A DNA stretch of 64,000 bases. Source: Meiothermus sp. Lineage in GTDB: Bacteria > Deinococcota > Deinococci > Deinococcales > Thermaceae. Both the position numbers and the translations under genes were made by a program. Positions 20,482 through 31,304 of the stretch are shown one piece after another. The stretch spans positions 30,855 through 94,854 of the forward strand of contig NZ_JANXCG010000062.1 in assembly GCF_025060375.1 (NCBI RefSeq), read 5' to 3'. The notes below the pieces were generated by a model. It made no database searches. It had not been told where the DNA came from and was given only the letters and a program-made list of their open reading frames with translations. How positions within the stretch are numbered: the first letter of the stretch is position 1; every line of letters begins with the position of its first letter.

Positions 20482-21402
20482 ATGCCCCCCTCACTCCTAA
20501 TAGAGCAGCTCCTGAATGGCCTTCAGTTTGGCCTGATGCTCTTCCTGCTGGCCGCTGGCCTCACCCTGGTCTTCGGCATCATGGACATGATCAACCTCGC
20601 CCACGGCTCGCTCTACATGATTGGGGCCTACCTGACCGCAACCTTCGTGGGCCTGCTGGGCAACTTCTGGCTAGCGGTACTCCTGGCGGTCCTGGGCACC
20701 GCCCTTGTCGGGATGCTTTTGGAGCTCAGCGTACTGCGCCAGCTCTACCGGCGCGACCACCTTTCGCAGGTGCTGGCCACCTTCGCGCTCATTCTCATCA
20801 TCAACGAGGTGGTGCGCATCATCTGGGGCTCCCAACCCCTTCTGCTCTCCGCCCCCGAGGGGCTTTCAGGACCGGTGGAGCTCCTGCCGGGGCTGAGCTA
20901 CTCGGCCTACCGGCTCACCATCATCGGGGTGGGGCTTTTGGTGGCGGCGCTCCTCTTCTGGCTGGTCAACCGCACCCGGGTCGGGATGTGGCTCCGGGCC
21001 GGGGCTTCCAACCGCGAGATGGCCCAGGCCATGGGGGTGCCCATCCGCCCCCTCTTCACCCTGCTCTTCGGGGTGGGTGCGGGGCTGTGCGCCGTCGCCG
21101 GGGCCTTCTTGGGGCCCATCCTGGCGGTGCAGATTGGGATGGGCGAGGGCATCCTGATCCTGGCCTTTGTGGTCATCGTGATCGGCGGGATTGGCTCCAT
21201 CAAGGGAGCCCTGGTGGGGGCCCTGCTGGTGGGCACCGTGGACACCGCGGGGCGGGCCTTCCTACCCCTCCTGCTCTCGCAGGTGGCCTCCCCCGAGGTG
21301 GCGGCCAACCTCGGGCCGGCCCTGGCCTCCATCCTGATCTACCTCCTGATGGCGGCGGTGCTCTTCTTCAGACCCCAGGGGCTCTTCCCGGCCCGCACCT
21401 AG
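20482..21402 (+). CDS. LivH-like ABC permease
   Basis: LNGLQFG..AAGLTLVFGIMDMINLAHG and VIGGIGS. Confidence 0.9.
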   Translation: MPPSLLIEQLLNGLQFGLMLFLLAAGLTLVFGIMDMINLAHGSLYMIGAYLTATFVGLLGNFWLAVLLAVLGTALVGMLLELSVLRQLYRRDHLSQVLATFALILIINEVVRIIWGSQPLLLSAPEGLSGPVELLPGLSYSAYRLTIIGVGLLVAALLFWLVNRTRVGMWLRAGASNREMAQAMGVPIRPLFTLLFGVGAGLCAVAGAFLGPILAVQIGMGEGILILAFVVIVIGGIGSIKGALVGALLVGTVDTAGRAFLPLLLSQVASPEVAANLGPALASILIYLLMAAVLFFRPQGLFPART

Positions 21403-24590: not shown

Positions 24591-26474
24591 CTACTCCTCC
24601 AAGGTGGAAAGGTCGCCTGGGTCCTGCCCCAACGCCTGGGCCCTCAAAAGCCGCCGTAGGATTTTGCCTGAGCGGGTTTTGGGCAGCCTGTCCACGAAGA
24701 CCAGCTCCCCTGGCGTAGCGATGGGGCCGAGCTGGTGCCGCACATGCTGGACAATCTCCTGCTGCAAGGTAGGGGTCTTCTCCCAACCCGCCCGCAGCAC
24801 CACAAAGGCCTGGATGCGCTCGCCCTTAATGGGGTCGGGCACGCCAATCACCGCAGCCTCAGCCACAGCAGGATAGGCAACCAGGGCGCTCTCCACATCG
24901 GCGGTGCCAATGCGGTGCCCCGCCACATTGAGCACATCGTCAGCCCGGCCCAGCACCGCAAAGTAGCCGTCCTCGCTCCGGCTGGCCACATCCCCCGCGG
25001 CATAGAACCCGCCGGGAATCTCCTCCCAGTACCGGGTGTAGCGGCCATGGTCGCCCCAGATGGTGCGCATCATGTGAGGAAAAGGCCGGCCCAGGACGAG
25101 CAGCCCTCCCCTGCCTGGGGGCACCTCCTTTCCCTCAGCGTCCACTACCTTTGCCTCCACCCCGGGCAACGGCACCCCCACAAAACCGGGGCGGGCCTCG
25201 AGGGTCAAGGGAGTGCCCAGGGTGGGCCCCCCCAGCTCGGTCTGCCACCAGTTGTCCACCACAAAACCGCGCCGGCCCTCATCCATAAGGTGGGTGTGGG
25301 CCCAGCGCCAGGCCTCGGGGTTCAGCGGCTCGCCGGCCACCGCCAAAAGCCGCAACGAGGAAAGGTCGTGCCGAGCCGGCCATTCTGGGCCGTACTTCAT
25401 AAACATGCGCACGGCGGTGGGGGCGGTGAACATTACGTTCACGCGGTAGCGCTCCACGGCCCCCCAGAGGGCGGAGGGGTCAGGGTAGTCGGGAGCTCCT
25501 TCGCGCAACACGCTGGTAATGCCCAAAAGCAGGGGGGCATAGACGATGTAGCTGTGCCCCACAATCCAGCCGATGTCCGAGGTAGCCCAGAAGACCTCGT
25601 CCTCCTTCACATCAAAAAAGGTCCGCAGGTGGTAGGCAACCCCCACCATGTACCCTCCGTGCACGTGCACCACCCCCTTGGGCTTCCCGGTGGAGCCCGA
25701 GGTGTAGAGGATGAAAAGGGGGTGCTCGCTGTCTAAAGGCACCGCCCCTGCCTCGGGTTTGTGCCCCCAAAGGAGGGCGTTAAAGTCGCTGTGGCGAGGG
25801 CCCTCAGGCACCGCCTTGCTCCGGCTGAACCAGACCACGTGCACGTCCAAGCCCTGGGTGGCCTGCAAAACGATTGACGCCAGGTCAACCGGCTTTCCCC
25901 GTCGGTAGCTCACATCCCCAGCCACCACCACCCTGGCCCCTGCATCCTGTATGCGCTCCCGCAGAGCTGCCACCCCCAGGCCGGCGTAGACCACCGAGTG
26001 GACCGCCCCAATCCGAGCGCAGGCCAGCATGGCAATGATCCCTTCGGGGGTCAGGGGCATGTAGACGATGACCCGGTCCCCTTCCCGAACCCCAAGGGCC
26101 TTGAGGGCGGTGGCAAAGCGGGCCACCCGGTCCAGAAGCTCCCCATAGGTGAGCTTCTGCTCCCTGCCGTCCTCCCCCAGGTACAAAAGGGCTACCCGGT
26201 TGCGGGTAGGCCCCTTAGCGTGGCGGTCCAGCGCATTGTAGACGATGTTGGTCTGGCCGCCCAAAAACCAGCGGTGGTCGGGGAAGTTCCACTCCAAGAC
26301 CCGCTCAAAGGGCTGGAACCAGCTGAAGCGCCGGGCCTCCTCCCCCCAAAACCCCTCCGGGTCCTCCAGGCTGCGGTTATACTCAGCCCAAAAGTCGCGC
26401 AGATTGGCGGCCTGCCGCTCCCACTCGGGCGCTAGATAACCAACCTGGGCCTTCAAAAGCTGCTCAATTTGCAT
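24591..26474 (-). CDS. Acetate/short-chain acyl-CoA ligase (ACS paralog)
   Basis: [30 protein letters not shown] and KTRSGKILRR. AGGAGG RBS before ATG 26474. Confidence 0.92.
   Translation of the reverse strand: MQIEQLLKAQVGYLAPEWERQAANLRDFWAEYNRSLEDPEGFWGEEARRFSWFQPFERVLEWNFPDHRWFLGGQTNIVYNALDRHAKGPTRNRVALLYLGEDGREQKLTYGELLDRVARFATALKALGVREGDRVIVYMPLTPEGIIAMLACARIGAVHSVVYAGLGVAALRERIQDAGARVVVAGDVSYRRGKPVDLASIVLQATQGLDVHVVWFSRSKAVPEGPRHSDFNALLWGHKPEAGAVPLDSEHPLFILYTSGSTGKPKGVVHVHGGYMVGVAYHLRTFFDVKEDEVFWATSDIGWIVGHSYIVYAPLLLGITSVLREGAPDYPDPSALWGAVERYRVNVMFTAPTAVRMFMKYGPEWPARHDLSSLRLLAVAGEPLNPEAWRWAHTHLMDEGRRGFVVDNWWQTELGGPTLGTPLTLEARPGFVGVPLPGVEAKVVDAEGKEVPPGRGGLLVLGRPFPHMMRTIWGDHGRYTRYWEEIPGGFYAAGDVASRSEDGYFAVLGRADDVLNVAGHRIGTADVESALVAYPAVAEAAVIGVPDPIKGERIQAFVVLRAGWEKTPTLQQEIVQHVRHQLGPIATPGELVFVDRLPKTRSGKILRRLLRAQALGQDPGDLSTLEE
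25642..25733. repeat. 92-bp exact repeat, copy 1 (ACS P-loop region)
   Basis: Identical base for base to 27524-27615. Confidence 0.9.
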
Positions 26475-26484
26475 AAAGCCTCCT

Positions 26485-29136
26485 TTAGGGTTCCAGAGTG
26501 GAAAGGTCACCGGGGTCAACGCCCAGCTCCTGGGCTTTTAGCAAACGGCGCATGATTTTCCCGCTTTTGGTGCGGGGTAGGCGCTCCACGATGAGCACCT
26601 CAGTGGCCAGGCTCAGGTTGCCCAGTTGCCGGCGCAGGTGGGATTTCAGCTTATCCGAAAGAACCGCTCGAGCCTCCAGGCTGGCCTCGCGGGTCTTCAG
26701 GACCACGTAGACCTTAACCACCTCCCCCCCCTCAGGGTCGGGCACCCCTATTGCCGCGGCCTCGGCCACGGCGGGGTGGGCGAGCATGGCGCCTTCTATC
26801 TCGGCGGTGCCAATCCGGAGCTCCCCGGCCTTAATCACATCGTCCGAGCGGCCTAGAAGGGCGATGTACCCCTCCTCATCCCGCACCGCAATGTCGCCGG
26901 TAGCGTAGCATCCCGGGATGCGGCTCCACTGCTCGACGTAGCGCCTATCGTCGTTCCAAAAGGTGCGCATGAAGTGGGGGAAGGGCCTGCAGATGACCAG
27001 ATGCCCCTTCTCGCCCGGAGGGAGTTCCCGGCCCAGGCCATCCACCACCCGCATCTCCACCCCTGGTAGGGGCAGGCCGGCCTTTCCGGGCTTGGCGGGC
27101 ATGCACACCGGGGTGGAAAGGCAAGGCCCACCGGTCTCGGTCTGCCACCAGTTGTCCAGCACGTGGGCCAGGTGATTCCGAGCCCAGCGCCAGACCTCCG
27201 GAGCCAGGTACTCCCCCACACAGCCCACCAAGCGCAAGGCGCTGAGGTCGGCATCCTTGGCCCACTCCTCCCCGTGCCGGCGGAAGGCGCGCAGCCAGGT
27301 AGGGCTGGTCAGCAAGACGTTGACCCCGCACGCCTCTAGGGTCTCGTAGAAGCTGCTGGGGTCGGGGTAGTCCAGCCGTTCAGCCCTGAGCACGGTGGTC
27401 AGGCCCTCCAAAAGAGGGGCGTAGAGCGCATAGCTGTGGCCCACAATCCAGGAGAGGTCGGCGGTAGCCCACATCACGTCCCCCTCCTTGAGGTCAAAGA
27501 GGGTGCGCAGGTGGTAGGTGATGCCCACCATGTACCCTCCGTGCACGTGCACCACCCCCTTGGGCTTCCCGGTGGAGCCCGAGGTGTAGAGGATGAAAAG
27601 GGGGTGCTCGCTGTCCACTGGAAGGGCCGGGGTATTGGGCCGGTGAGCCTCCACGAGCTCCCAAAACTCCAAGGACCGGGCGTTGCCACCCCGGCTAAAC
27701 CAGAGCACCTCCAGGTCCAGGCCCTGGACTGCCTCCTCTATCAGGGAGGCAAAGGGCAGGACACGCCCTCCCTGGTACATCCGGTCGGCCGCCACCAGAA
27801 GCTTAGCCCCGGTGTCCAAAAGGCGCTCCCGCAAGGCCTGGGCCCCCATCCCCGCCGGCACCGCCACGTGCACCGCCCCTATACGGGCGCAGGCCAAAAA
27901 GGTGAGGGCCATCTCCAGACCGGTGGGCATGTAGACCGCCACCCGGTCGCCCAGCCCAATCCCCAGGGCCCGCAAGCCCCCGGCCAGCCTCGAGACGAGA
28001 TCGCGCAGCTCGCGGTAGGTGAGCTTGTGCACAGCGCCGTCACCCGCCAAGGCGATGAGGGCCAGGTGATTGCGGCGGGGACCTTCGGCGTAGCGGTCCA
28101 GCGCATTGTAGGTGATGTTGGTCTCGGCCCCCACAAACCAACGGTGGTGAGGCGGCTCGAGGCAGCGAACCTCCTTCCAAGGAGAAAACCAAACAAAACG
28201 CCGGGCCCAGCCCGCCCAGAAGCCCTCGGGGTCCCTTAGGCTCCGCTCGTACTCGGCCCGATAATCGCGCAGGTTGGCCTCAGCTACCAGACGGGGTGGA
28301 GCGGGCACCGCCTTCTCCTCGCAAGCGGGGGTGGGAGACGGGTCAGGGGGGCTCTCCAGGGGCTGGGATAGTGGCTCCGAGGCCACCACCGCCGGCTCGG
28401 TGGGGTGGTAGCTCGAGGCCGCCTTGGCCACCTCCTGCACCGCCTGCACCAGCCGGGTAAAAGCGTAGGGGAAACGCCGGGAAGGCACCACCACCCCCAA
28501 AGCCCCCAGCACCCGCCCCTCCGGGTCAAAAATGGGGGCTGCCAGGCTAGAAAGCCCCAAGGCGTGCTCCTCTATCTCCACCGCAAACCCCATGCGCCGA
28601 ACCTTGGAGAGCTCCTCCTCCAGGGTCAGAGGGTCGGTCAGGGTCAGCGGGGTGTAGGCCCGTAGGTTCTGCAGGTGGCCCGCCTGCACCTCGGGCTCCA
28701 AAAAGGCCAACACCGCCTTGCCCAAGGCCAGGGCGTGAAAACCCTCGGCAATTACTCCCTCCACCCCACTCAGCTTGGGCAGCCCCTGCCGACCGCGGGT
28801 GCTGAGCCGGAGCCGGCCCTCCCGGTCAAGCAAGGCCAGGTAGGTCCGTTCGCGGGTGCGTAGGTAAAGCTCCTCTAGAGCGTCAGATAGACGCTCAGGC
28901 TCCACCAACGGGGCAGAGGGCTTGGCCAAAGCAGTCCTGGAAAGCTTGTAGAGGCTTCCTTCCCGCTCGGCAAAACCCTCAGCCACTAGGCTGGCCAGAA
29001 GGGCATAGGCAGTGGAGAGGCTTTTACCCAAAAAGGCCGCTAGCCGCGCTGCCTCAACCCCCTCAGGGTGCTCGGCCAGGTAGGCCAGCACCCTGAGGGC
29101 GGTTTGCACGGTGGTGAGCTTCCGACTTTGGGCCAT
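26485..29136 (-). CDS. IclR-family regulator fused in frame to an acetyl-CoA-synthetase-like domain (883 aa)
   Basis: IclR HTH (TALRVLAYLAEH..LGKSLSTAYALLASL) and IclR effector domain (HALALGKAVLA..GFAVEIEE..LAAPIF..GALGV), then a Pro-rich linker and a full ACS domain. No internal stop. Confidence 0.88.
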   Translation of the reverse strand: MAQSRKLTTVQTALRVLAYLAEHPEGVEAARLAAFLGKSLSTAYALLASLVAEGFAEREGSLYKLSRTALAKPSAPLVEPERLSDALEELYLRTRERTYLALLDREGRLRLSTRGRQGLPKLSGVEGVIAEGFHALALGKAVLAFLEPEVQAGHLQNLRAYTPLTLTDPLTLEEELSKVRRMGFAVEIEEHALGLSSLAAPIFDPEGRVLGALGVVVPSRRFPYAFTRLVQAVQEVAKAASSYHPTEPAVVASEPLSQPLESPPDPSPTPACEEKAVPAPPRLVAEANLRDYRAEYERSLRDPEGFWAGWARRFVWFSPWKEVRCLEPPHHRWFVGAETNITYNALDRYAEGPRRNHLALIALAGDGAVHKLTYRELRDLVSRLAGGLRALGIGLGDRVAVYMPTGLEMALTFLACARIGAVHVAVPAGMGAQALRERLLDTGAKLLVAADRMYQGGRVLPFASLIEEAVQGLDLEVLWFSRGGNARSLEFWELVEAHRPNTPALPVDSEHPLFILYTSGSTGKPKGVVHVHGGYMVGITYHLRTLFDLKEGDVMWATADLSWIVGHSYALYAPLLEGLTTVLRAERLDYPDPSSFYETLEACGVNVLLTSPTWLRAFRRHGEEWAKDADLSALRLVGCVGEYLAPEVWRWARNHLAHVLDNWWQTETGGPCLSTPVCMPAKPGKAGLPLPGVEMRVVDGLGRELPPGEKGHLVICRPFPHFMRTFWNDDRRYVEQWSRIPGCYATGDIAVRDEEGYIALLGRSDDVIKAGELRIGTAEIEGAMLAHPAVAEAAAIGVPDPEGGEVVKVYVVLKTREASLEARAVLSDKLKSHLRRQLGNLSLATEVLIVERLPRTKSGKIMRRLLKAQELGVDPGDLSTLEP
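27524..27615. repeat. 92-bp exact repeat, copy 2
   Basis: Identical to 25642-25733. Confidence 0.9.
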
Positions 29137-29272
29137 GGTGAGCAAAGGGTTCCCAGCGGCCAACGAAAAAGCGCTGGCTTCAGCTATGCACTTCAGCCGA
29201 CATAATGGTCCTGAGCTCGTCCAAATGTCAAGTAATGGCCGAATTCCTACATTTGACAAACCCCTGGATTTC

Positions 29273-29301
29273 TTGACGACGCCTGAGGCACCGCCTATGC
29301 T
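29273..29301 (+). promoter_or_regulatory. Sigma70-type promoter of acsA
   Basis: TTGACG (29273-29278), 17 nt, TATGCT (29296-29301). Confidence 0.75.
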
Positions 29302-29357
29302 CACAATCAAAAAGACCCCCTGGATTGGGTACATCTTTGCTCTAGGAGGGGCAGCCT

Positions 29358-31304
29358 ATGGAAAAAATCGAAGCGGTTCTAAAGGAGGAGCGGGTTTTTT
29401 ACCCCTCCGAGGCCTTTCAGCAGAAAGCGCACATCCGCCAGCTGCAAGAGTACGAGGCCCTCTACAAGGAGAGCCTAGAACAGCCCGAGGCATTCTGGGG
29501 CCGTGTGGCCGGGGAGCTACACTGGTTCCAACCCTGGCAAAAGGTGCTGGAGTGGAACCCTCCCAATGCCAAATGGTTCATCGGGGGCAGGCTCAACCTC
29601 TCCTACAACTGCTTGGACCGGCACCTGGAAACCCGGGGCAACAAGGCGGCCATCATCTTTGAGGGTGAGCCAGGGGACTCCCGGACCCTCACCTACCAAC
29701 AGCTCCACCGGGAGGTCTGCAAGTTTGCCAATGTGCTGAAAAGCCTGGGTGTGGGGAAGGGTGACCGGGTTACCATCTACCTACCCATGATTCCCGAGGC
29801 GGCCATTGCCATGCTCGCCTGCGTGCGCATTGGGGCAGTGCACTCGGTGGTCTTCGGCGGCTTCTCGGCCTCCGCCTTGGCCGACCGCATCAACGATGCT
29901 CAGGCCAAGGTGCTCATCACCGCCGATGGGGGTTACCGACGGGGGAGCATCGTGCCTCTGAAGGCCAACAGCGACGAGGCCCTGGCCGATGCCAAGAGCA
30001 TCCAGCACGTGGTGGTGATCCGGCGCACTGGGCAGGAAGTCCCCATGCAGGCTGGTCGGGACCATTGGTACCACGAGCTGATGGCGGGCGCCTCCCCCCA
30101 CTGCCCCGCCGAACCCATGGACGCCGAAGACCCCCTCTTCATCCTCTACACCTCGGGCTCCACCGGCAAACCCAAGGGCGTGCTGCACACCACCGGGGGC
30201 TACTCCGTCTACACCTACCTCACGGCCCGCTACATCTTTGACCTGCAGGAGAACGACACCTACTTCTGCACCGCTGATGTGGGCTGGATCACCGGGCACA
30301 GCTACGTGGTCTATGGCCTCTTACAAAACGGGGCCACCACCCTTATGTACGAAGGAGCGCCCAACTTCCCCGACGAGGGGCGCATCTGGAGCATCATTGA
30401 AAAGTACCGGGTGAACATCCTCTACACCGCCCCTACGGCCATCCGGGCTTTCATGAAGTGGGGGGAGGAGTGGCCGCGCAAGTACGACCTCTCCAGCCTG
30501 CGCCTGCTGGGGTCGGTAGGGGAACCCATCAACCCCGAGGCCTGGCTGTGGTACTACCGGGTGATTGGCCAGGAGCGCTGCCCCATTGTGGACACCTGGT
30601 GGCAGACCGAGACCGGGGGCATCATGATCACCACCCTGCCCGGGGTGCATCCTATGAAGCCTGGCCACGCTGGCAAGCCCTTCTTCGGGGTCAAGCCCGA
30701 GATTGTGGACAGCTCGGGGCAGCCGGTCACCAATCCCGACGAAGGCGGCCATCTGATCATCGAGCGACCCTGGCCCTCCATGTTGCGCACCGTGTGGGGC
30801 GACCCTGAGCGCTTCGAGCGGCAGTACTTCTCCCAGTACCCGGGCCGGTACTTCACCGGTGATGGAGCTAAGCGCGATGCCGAGGGCTACTACATGATCC
30901 TGGGCCGGGTAGACGATGTGCTCAACGTATCGGGCCACCGCTTGGGCACCATGGAGATTGAAAGCGCCTTGGTCGCCCACCCCGCCGTGGCTGAGGCCGC
31001 GGTGGTAGGCCGCCCCGACCCCATCAAGGGTGAGGGCATCGTGGCTTTTGTCACCCTGAAGAGCGGCCACAGCGCCAGCCCCGAGCTGGCCCAGGAACTC
31101 AAGGCCCACGTAGTCAAGATGATCGGGGCCATTGCTCGTCCCGATGAGATTCGTATAACCGACGCGCTGCCCAAGACCCGCTCGGGAAAGATCATGCGCC
31201 GTTTGCTCCGCCAGGTGGCCTCAGGCGAGGAAATCAAGGGGGACACCAGCACCCTGGAAGACCGCGCGGTGGTGGAGCGGCTCAAGACCTCTAGCGCGCA
31301 TTGA
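29358..31304 (+). CDS. acsA: Acetyl-CoA synthetase (canonical)
   Basis: [44 protein letters not shown] and [10 protein letters not shown]. Confidence 0.96.

Follow-up and report, generated by a model that had tools for sequence, protein, structure and literature searches.

Within the window analysed here, i.e., a stretch of 64,000 nucleotides of Meiothermus sp. DNA, one gene encodes an IclR regulator and an acetyl-CoA synthetase (ACS)-like domain, both complete, which are joined by a disordered linker. Its sequence and conservation on balance lead us to read the product as a one-component regulator whose enzyme-derived ACS domain would act as a sensor with an impaired thioester step, and which probably senses acetate and ATP rather than producing acetyl-CoA. 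The gene, its parts and its neighbours are located as follows (window positions, strand).

24591..26474 (-): stand-alone ACS paralog 2, downstream and co-directional, with canonical motifs (752 bits vs. a cutoff of 657)
26485..29136 (-): IclR-ACS fusion gene, 883 aa, Met at 29136
26488..26844 (-): ACS-like C-terminal domain with remodelled A8 hairpin, R526, R584 and the A10 Lys
26809-26853 (-): remodelled A8 hairpin, overlapping the hinge; reads GRSDDVIKAGELRIG
26845..28317 (-): ACS-like N-terminal domain with P-loop, DRMYQGGR, GEYLA, WWQTE and TGD
28318..28404 (-): Pro/Ser/Glu-rich disordered linker (residues 245-273, pLDDT <50)
28414..28740 (-): IclR C-terminal effector-type domain (PF01614, E=1.3e-21)
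28960..29109 (-): IclR-type helix-turn-helix (PF09339, E=1.6e-10)
29137..29357 (no strand): control region between the fusion gene and acsA with two back-to-back promoter-like sites
29358..31304 (+): canonical acsA, divergently transcribed (1083 bits)

The mechanically derived open reading frame extends to 29334. The 66 extra upstream codons are not conserved, and the ortholog start MAQSRKL is consistent with Met at 29136. The protein, which is exactly the cluster representative P0001 (883 aa), carries the Pfam domains HTH_IclR, IclR_C, ACAS_N, AMP-binding and AMP-binding_C. With regard to the regulator part, the N-terminal HTH_IclR and the C-terminal effector domain that characterize the IclR family are both present at full length; the AF2 model is confident for residues 7-240, and the effector part (residues 80-240) is structured. 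The enzyme-derived C-terminal domain comprises 610 aa. Databases name the gene 'acetate-CoA ligase' or 'AMP-binding protein'. When compared with the NCBIfam acetate-CoA ligase families (NF001208 / TIGR02188; curated cutoffs 657 and 724.95), the fusion protein scores below both cutoffs (593.9 vs. 657, 587.3 vs. 724.95), and both neighbours clear them (752 and 728 for paralog 2; 1083 and 1028 for acsA).

Residues are numbered according to Salmonella Acs (PDB 2P2F). The HMMER alignment is gapless across A8, and segment lengths rebuilt from it give back the published Acs numbering. According to the original prediction, the fused domain has lost residues needed for the CoA half-reaction, among them the A8 glycine G524, and has kept its adenylation motifs. 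The minus-strand sequence and the alignment uphold the replacement of G524: the hairpin tip S523-G524-H525 reads G-E-L, i.e., the A8-tip Gly of acetate-CoA ligases is Glu (GAG codon 26823-26821). The A8 loops of acsA and of the second paralog (GRADDVLNVAGHRIG) also read as had been described. The same holds for the changes from YRRG to YQGG and from GEPIN to GEYLA, that is, position R191 is Gln (CAG codon 27774-27772; MYQGGR at 27780-27763) and position P389 is Tyr (GEYLA at 27216-27202). The adenylation core is indeed intact and comprises the P-loop (A3, 27588-27556), WWQTE (A5, 27150-27136), TGD (A7, 26901-26893), R515 and the A10 Lys (K609, codon 26559-26557). D500 and the Mg-binding E417 of WWQTE are kept too, as is the acetate-size acyl pocket (W414, V386), with Leu at position 310 and Val at 311. 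The broader claim about CoA half-reaction residues stands in part: G524, R191, P389 and N391 are changed, but R194, R526 and R584 of the arginine set for CoA binding and the thioester step are present.

It had been suggested to check by structure modelling whether an adjacent Gly takes the G524 position. We see no sign of this in two AF2 models. In the fusion model, G771 and E772 form a regular two-residue turn between the strands 767-770 and 773-776, with a hairpin pLDDT of only ~68; the quality of the paralog-2 model is low in this part (pLDDT <50).

The proposed comparison with fusion orthologs revealed that G524E/D, S523G and the losses of H525, P389 and N391 are family-wide. At position 524, 53/53 fusion orthologs carry Glu or Asp and 64/64 stand-alone ACS carry Gly, and judged by these alignments the pattern is for this reason not chance. 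Among ~70 diverse ACS-family representatives, Gly is found with one exception. S523, H525, P389 and N391 as well as N521 (to Lys) are changed in all 53 fusions, such that G-[E/D]-x takes the place of [S/A]-G-H at the A8 tip; A394, G308 and A360 of the CoA-site region are substituted as well. Altogether 18 columns without variation among stand-alone ACS differ in the fusions, which in turn conserve the new residues. R191 is truly absent from the window protein, but its loss is specific to lineages: 24/24 Meiothermus-type fusions lack it (21 of them, with the window protein among these, have Gln and 3 have His or Tyr), and beyond these it is missing only from one degenerate clade, while YRRG is present in most fusions of the Thermus type. 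K609, E417, T416, D500, R515 and the P-loop show the same degree of conservation in the 47 main-clade fusions as in true enzymes. K609, R526 and the P-loop are additionally missing from a degenerate Deinococcales clade, which keeps Asp at 524. Finally, chimeras occur in Calidithermus chliarophilus and Allomeiothermus silvanus; their C-terminal ACS part comes from paralog 2 and shows the canonical AGHR loop. Since these chimeras persist in two lineages, Glu at 524 is evidently not indispensable for keeping the gene.

The fusion is found in 62/68 Thermaceae genomes from 5 genera with open frames of 840-916 aa, and the order of acsA, fusion and paralog 2 is conserved. Its ACS domains are monophyletic (SH-aLRT 100); their stem is long, at 0.46 substitutions per site, and paralog 2 is their sister. 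The tree thus places a single origin, by duplication, in the lineage of the adjacent paralog 2. A search of the representative library, which also supplied the diverse ACS sample, yielded no fusions outside the family, which as a whole forms one 50% cluster. The nearest unfused relatives of the IclR part (40-45% identity) are from Solirubrobacteraceae and are encoded beside di-iron monooxygenase genes; we looked for ACS genes next to these stand-alone relatives and found none. As to selection, the fused ACS domain shows a dN/dS of 0.10-0.14 and the IclR part one of 0.11, and the linker is the fastest-evolving part of the gene (0.43). Given its low dN/dS, the ACS domain is, by this measure, functional and not decaying. 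In the Deinococcales clade, dN/dS is 0.08-0.15 despite the loss of K609, R526 and P-loop, which marks its ACS domain, as far as sequences tell, as non-catalytic yet selected. Because this clade is still under selection, it argues that catalysis is not required everywhere for the role of the domain.

In the control region, the promoter-like site toward the fusion gene reads TTGACA-18-CATTAT and the one toward acsA TTGACG-17-TATGCT. A conserved palindrome TTTGNCAAA lies between the two -35 boxes (29252-29260), and alignments of Meiothermus as well as of Thermus sequences show the elements of the region to be conserved. A genome scan for TTTGNCAAATG gave 5 sites vs. 0 in the control; four of them show no obvious connection with acetate metabolism.

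Anatomy, conservation pattern, single origin, purifying selection and synteny are established by this analysis; for the mechanism, we infer the loss of CoA ligation as well as which ligand is bound, which DNA is targeted and in which direction regulation works. A complete IclR module that is flexibly linked to an ACS domain would constitute a one-component regulator, near-universal in Thermaceae. After the fusion, the domain would have kept all that the formation of acetyl-AMP and the binding of its substrates, ATP and an acetate-sized acid, call for (P-loop, W414, V386, E417, D500, R515, K609), and the parts by which CoA enters and is held would have been rebuilt, i.e., the A8 tip lining the pantetheine tunnel, P389, N391, A394, G308 and A360 and, in the Meiothermus lineage, the CoA-phosphate-binding Arg191, now Gln. 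The most likely consequence would be a crippled thioester half-reaction. The ACS domain may then report acetate/ATP, or another ligand of the adenylate site, to the IclR module. Through the shared divergent promoter region, this module would control acsA as well as its own operon with paralog 2.

Published mutants inform the CoA step. R193Q in the Acs of M. thermautotrophicus (AcsMt) lowers kcat/Km for CoA ~12,000-fold (PMC10455477); R191Q of the window protein is the same substitution, and the involvement of the R191/R194 loop in binding CoA has been restated (PMC13404658). On the other hand, G459A of MacsMa, at the Gly equivalent to G524, barely affects activity (PMC10455477). Because this Gly-to-Ala exchange is nearly harmless, we infer rather than read off the effect of Glu at 524 on CoA use. 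For the same reason, non-Gly residues may be tolerated at 524, and the Gly gained next to it might make the loop flexible again.

Acetyl-AMP is a plausible candidate for the signal. A tentative version, drawn by analogy, is a stalled ACS: acetate and ATP would yield acetyl-AMP without transfer to CoA, and the trapped adenylate together with domain rotation would switch the IclR module at the acsA promoter, i.e., a BirA-like logic that would have evolved independently from an ANL enzyme. In a bolder variant, acetyl-AMP might self-acetylate a lysine of the regulator, similar to the reported Acs-dependent acetylation of CheY.

Two bona fide ACS genes flank the fusion, such that a third enzyme would be redundant. 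This weighs against a bifunctional enzyme-regulator, in which the fused domain still makes acetyl-CoA, maybe slowly or with altered kinetics, DNA binding responds to the catalytic cycle or its product in the manner of PutA or BirA, and the A8 changes tune CoA use rather than abolish it. We consider this unlikely, even though all adenylation residues plus R194, R526, R584 and K609 are present, R191 is kept in most Thermus-type fusions, MacsMa tolerates G459A, the chimeras with canonical C-domain persist in two species and selection on the ACS domain is strong. Such an enzyme would have to work with an acidic residue in place of a superfamily-invariant Gly in 53/53 orthologs and, in the window, with a substitution whose AcsMt equivalent is severe; its scores below the family cutoffs and the continued selection on the sister clade without K609 and P-loop fit it poorly.

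The same Deinococcales clade, under purifying selection without K609, R526 and a working P-loop, is what a non-catalytic ligand-binding sensor or oligomerisation scaffold would lead one to expect. Here, ATP, AMP, acetyl-CoA, CoA or acetate would be bound without turnover, and the adenylation residues would serve binding only. A further, weak point comes from the AF2 model of the fusion, which resembles the adenylate-forming conformation of CnAcs (rmsd ~5.8 A vs. ~10.5 A to SeAcs, with the paralog-2 model intermediate); the comparison is weak because the conformer chosen by AF2 is not evidence of a state preference. We nevertheless give this explanation a low probability, as the conservation of K609, E417, T416, D500, R515 and P-loop in the 47 main-clade fusions goes beyond the needs of nucleotide binding. 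That the ACS part is a decaying, functionless remnant of the fusion is highly improbable: missed family cutoffs and 18 replaced columns would agree with it, but the replacements are conserved, frames are intact in 62/68 genomes of 5 genera, and dN/dS values of about 0.1 in the main fusions as well as the low values in the Deinococcales clade led us to reject it.

The proposed regulator with an ACS-derived sensor can be set beside known systems. With AMP-forming Acs (Salmonella Acs 1PG4/2P2F; Chloroflexota AcsA 8RPK), the fused domain shares fold, domain order and 35-42% identity as well as all adenylation motifs and the acetate pocket; unlike Acs, it is attached to a transcription factor and stays under the ACS family cutoffs. 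Acs G524L, described by Reger et al. in 2007, reportedly retains adenylation and loses the overall reaction, which is the phenotype predicted for the fused domain. In contrast to this mutant, the change in the fusions is natural, acidic (E/D) and family-wide, and comes with S523G, H525x, P389x, N391x and, in Meiothermus, R191Q.

Enzyme-derived sensor domains are known from the one-component regulators BirA, PutA and BzdR. In BirA, biotinoyl-AMP, the acyl-adenylate that stays bound to the enzyme, serves as corepressor and alters oligomerisation and DNA binding. Its combination of an adenylate-forming enzyme with an HTH domain offers a functional analogy, with no homology, for the acyl-adenylate logic proposed here for acetyl-AMP. 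The folds are, however, unrelated (BPL class II synthetase-like plus winged helix in BirA, ANL plus IclR in the fusion), and BirA completes its second half-reaction, which appears disabled in the fused domain. The fatty acyl-AMP ligases (FAALs) of mycobacteria are ANL enzymes that form acyl-adenylates and are unable to use CoA, as proposed for the fused domain. There, an N-domain insertion blocks domain rotation and the acyl group goes to a carrier protein, whereas the fused domain lacks the insertion, is altered at the A8 tip itself and has no carrier protein nearby. Compared with the IclR family, the full-length HTH_IclR and IclR_C and the divergent orientation to a putative metabolic target gene are typical, but the 610-aa enzyme-derived domain sets the fusion apart from its unfused stand-alone relatives. 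Our literature search found no paper on an IclR-ACS fusion, nor on an ANL/ACS domain as sensor of a one-component regulator.

If the thioester step is disabled, these genomes would be wrongly annotated with a third ACS, and the family would be a natural, conserved counterpart of the engineered G524L half-reaction mutant as well as a thermostable, genetically encoded transcription factor responsive to acetate/ATP. Paralog 2, the main fusion clades and the Deinococcales clade would form a graded series from enzyme to pseudoenzyme sensor, whose stages, as suggested by their residues, are the enzyme, a form with adenylation kept and the CoA site altered, and a form in which all catalysis is lost and selection continues.

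Three ACS-type (AMP-forming acetyl-CoA synthetase) genes lie consecutively within the window:

29358-31304, + strand: acsA, the canonical copy
26485-29334, - strand: long open reading frame (ORF) with the IclR-ACS fusion, divergent from acsA
24591-26519, - strand: paralog 2, a stand-alone ACS (mechanical ORF, likely start 26474), ten bases downstream of the fusion ORF

This order is kept in Meiothermus, Calidithermus and Thermus loci. The long ORF shows five Pfam domains (HTH_IclR, IclR_C, ACAS_N, AMP-binding, AMP-binding_C), and the fusion starts at a conserved Met at 29136, which gives 883 aa, identical to the database cluster representative. The 66 codons upstream of it (29137-29334, promoter region) are part of the mechanical ORF only, unconserved in orthologs, and should not be annotated as coding. 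An AlphaFold2 model of the fusion (51 orthologs as input, mean pLDDT 84) has a folded IclR module (7-240) joined to a complete ACS fold by a disordered linker (245-273, pLDDT <50).

The original prediction stated that the fused domain has lost residues of the CoA half-reaction, using Salmonella Acs (Se) numbering. We rebuilt 2P2F chain residues 18-632 from a HMMER alignment with the fused domain; the resulting numbering recovers R191, R194, T264, V386, W414, D500, R515, D517, G524, R526, R584 and K609, and the numbering of the original prediction was correct. The alignment is gap-free across A8, whose motif reads GRSDDVIKAGELRIG in the fusion (26809-26853), such that the GAG codon at 26823-26821 indeed places Glu at G524, flanked by S523 to Gly and H525 to Leu. 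The nucleotide sequence also bears out the Gln within YRRG (MYQGGR, CAG at 27774-27772), which is R191, as well as GEYLA for GEPIN at 27216-27202, i.e., P389 to Tyr and N391 to Ala. P-loop, WWQTE, TGD and the A10 Lys (K609) are intact as predicted, and R515 is kept as well. The original description is accurate for G524, R191, P389 and N391; R194, R526 and R584 are all retained. Salmonella G524L is reported by Reger et al. (Biochemistry 2007) to retain adenylation and to lose the overall reaction.

A protein search gave 56 clusters of IclR-ACS fusions at full or nearly full length; their sources are Meiothermus, Calidithermus, Allomeiothermus, Marinithermus, Thermus and uncultured Deinococcales. 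Of the fusions, 53 could be scored at the positions in question, and their residues were tabulated alongside those of 64 co-aligned stand-alone ACS, among them the two paralogs of the window and Salmonella Acs. All 53 fusions carry Glu/Asp at 524 and Gly at 523 and have His525, Pro389 and Asn391 replaced; [A/S]-G-H, P389 and N391 are kept in 64/64 stand-alone ACS. Among ~70 further diverse ACS-family representatives, position 524 is Gly in all except one (Ala). A systematic screen for columns with at least 92% invariance in stand-alone ACS (most fully invariant) and replacement in fusions yields 18 (Se 100, 161, 299, 308, 343, 360, 389, 391, 394, 461, 480, 521, 524, 525, 534, 583, 591 and 604), and 114/170 columns conserved in stand-alone ACS are also kept in fusions. 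R191 is replaced by Q, H or Y in 24/24 Meiothermus-type fusions and by Q in 6/6 fusions of a deep Deinococcales branch (degenerate clade), but kept in 19/23 Thermus-type fusions. Conservation over fusion orthologs holds for the changes at 524, 525, 389 and 391 but fails for R191. The original observation is upheld, far more strongly than the window sequence alone could show. The altered A8 tip defines this family-wide fusion and is under selection.

The substitution R191 to Gln of the window fusion equals R193Q of M. thermautotrophicus Acs (AcsMt), which raises the Km for CoA 41-fold and lowers kcat 291-fold, i.e., catalytic efficiency is ~12,000-fold lower with the Km for ATP little affected (PMC10455477). 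The A8 Gly is highly conserved superfamily-wide and a proposed requirement for pantetheine tunnel opening; MacsMa Gly459Ala does almost no damage, which indicates tolerance of a small side chain there (PMC10455477). A 2026 preprint places R191 and R194 within the CoA-binding loop (PMC13404658). Literature searches found no publication on the IclR-ACS architecture.

The adjacent Gly might instead take over the G524 position. This is unsupported: no indel occurs between D517 and G528 in any aligned sequence, so the hairpin length is fixed, and the fusion model forms a two-residue turn G771-E772 between strands 767-770 and 773-776, in agreement with the ungapped register (K769 = N521, R774 = R526). 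The comparison with the paralog-2 hairpin is suggestive only, since pLDDT is <50 at the latter's tip. The change from x-G to G-x at the two turn positions would fit a different type of turn, in which the acidic side chain sticks out at the tip. The adenylate-forming state is represented by CnAcs structures (e.g., 5K8F) and the thioester-forming state by SeAcs structures (PMC13404658). The rmsd of the fusion model is ~5.8 Å to the former vs ~10.5 Å to the latter, with paralog 2 intermediate (~6.3 and ~7 Å), a conformer comparison that carries little weight as evidence of state.

An impaired CoA half-reaction of the fused domain is a reasonable reading of the sequence, given that an acidic residue replaces the invariant Gly, R191Q is found in the window lineage, P389 and N391 are replaced, the fusion scores below ACS family cutoffs and two true ACS genes adjoin it. 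Against it, three of the four CoA-binding or thioester-step Arg are kept and small Gly substitutions are tolerated elsewhere.

The degenerate clade goes further. Its six clusters (P0028-30, 34, 42, 51) from Deinococcales metagenome bins form the deepest fusion branch (L022:7992-10673; L023:7992-10658; L024:5287-7995). Asp is retained at 524, whereas the P-loop has become SGDKPKG, Leu replaces R526 and T, V, S or A replaces K609, so adenylation is also lost. No ACS genes adjoin these fusions; the surrounding genes include a LuxR-type two-component pair as well as XdhC-like and saccharopine-dehydrogenase-like ones. The ACS-like domain lacks catalytic residues yet is under purifying selection (dN/dS 0.08-0.15), so in one branch at least the domain does have a non-catalytic role.

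Two further fusions are chimeric (Calidithermus chliarophilus L017:7935-10634 and Allomeiothermus silvanus P0027), i.e., the IclR part and early ACS are fusion-type and the remainder is paralog-2-type, switching partway through the ACS N-domain. As their breakpoints differ, it looks as if the tandem paralogs underwent unequal crossover twice, independently in the two species; no separate paralog 2 lies downstream of the L017 chimera. Both carry canonical GEPLN and NVAGHRIG, which restores the AGHR loop. Loss of the Glu at 524 is evidently compatible with survival of the gene, which tempers any claim that the regulator cannot do without this residue.

Maximum-likelihood analysis groups the fused ACS domains in a single clade (SH-aLRT 100) on a long stem (0.46 substitutions per site) with the Meiothermus paralog-2 clade as sister (support 95). 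Monophyly, stem and sister placement point to a single duplication of the gene next door and a single fusion, followed by a burst of change. After this burst, the fused domain is conserved:

Median dN/dS among Meiothermus genomes
Fusion, ACS N-domain: 0.14
Fusion, ACS C-domain: 0.10
Fusion, IclR part: 0.11
Fusion, linker: 0.43
Paralog 2, N-domain / C-domain: 0.10 / 0.04
acsA, N-domain / C-domain: 0.08 / 0.05

Whole-genome searches find the IclR part in 62/68 Thermaceae species genomes (5/6 genera) and in 56/60 high-quality genomes, mostly in open frames of 840-916 aa. In Thermus parvatiensis (L028:7964-10534) the fusion appears split, a 409-aa IclR frame overlapping an 857-aa ACS frame, and in Thermus tenuipuniceus (L025:7851-10465) it likewise appears divided over two frames; this may be a frameshift or sequencing error, so that some Thermus strains may carry a broken gene. 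The nearest stand-alone relatives of the IclR part are unfused Solirubrobacteraceae proteins (L036-L080, e.g., L036:9094-11676; 40-45% identity). Beside these we found no ACS genes; neighbours encode a soluble di-iron monooxygenase (Phenol_Hydrox), ferredoxin-reductase, amidohydrolases and a GAF-domain protein.

The fusion-acsA intergenic region holds two promoter-like sites vs 0.1 expected by chance:

toward the fusion gene: TTGACA-18-CATTAT
toward acsA: TTGACG-17-TATGCT

Alignments of Meiothermus and of Thermus show both -35 boxes to be conserved. They form an inverted repeat, GTCAAGTAAT / ATTTCTTGAC (29227-29277), and the palindrome TTTGNCAAA between them (29252-29260) is conserved in Meiothermus and also, in inverted orientation, in Thermus. 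The palindrome is a putative operator, and the conserved elements would be compatible with a regulator acting on both promoters. We lean slightly towards the fused domain being a sensor with disabled or strongly weakened thioester step that regulates acsA and paralog 2; that acetyl-AMP is the actual signal within such a scheme seems less likely than not.

Scanning for the candidate operator also returned a perfect palindrome, CTTTTGCCA-TT-TGGCAAAAG, at L081:1980-2000 (G000:C2, ~21380-21400). Some 120 bp downstream of it starts a gene of 627+ aa with an N-terminus similar to pyruvate dehydrogenase E1.
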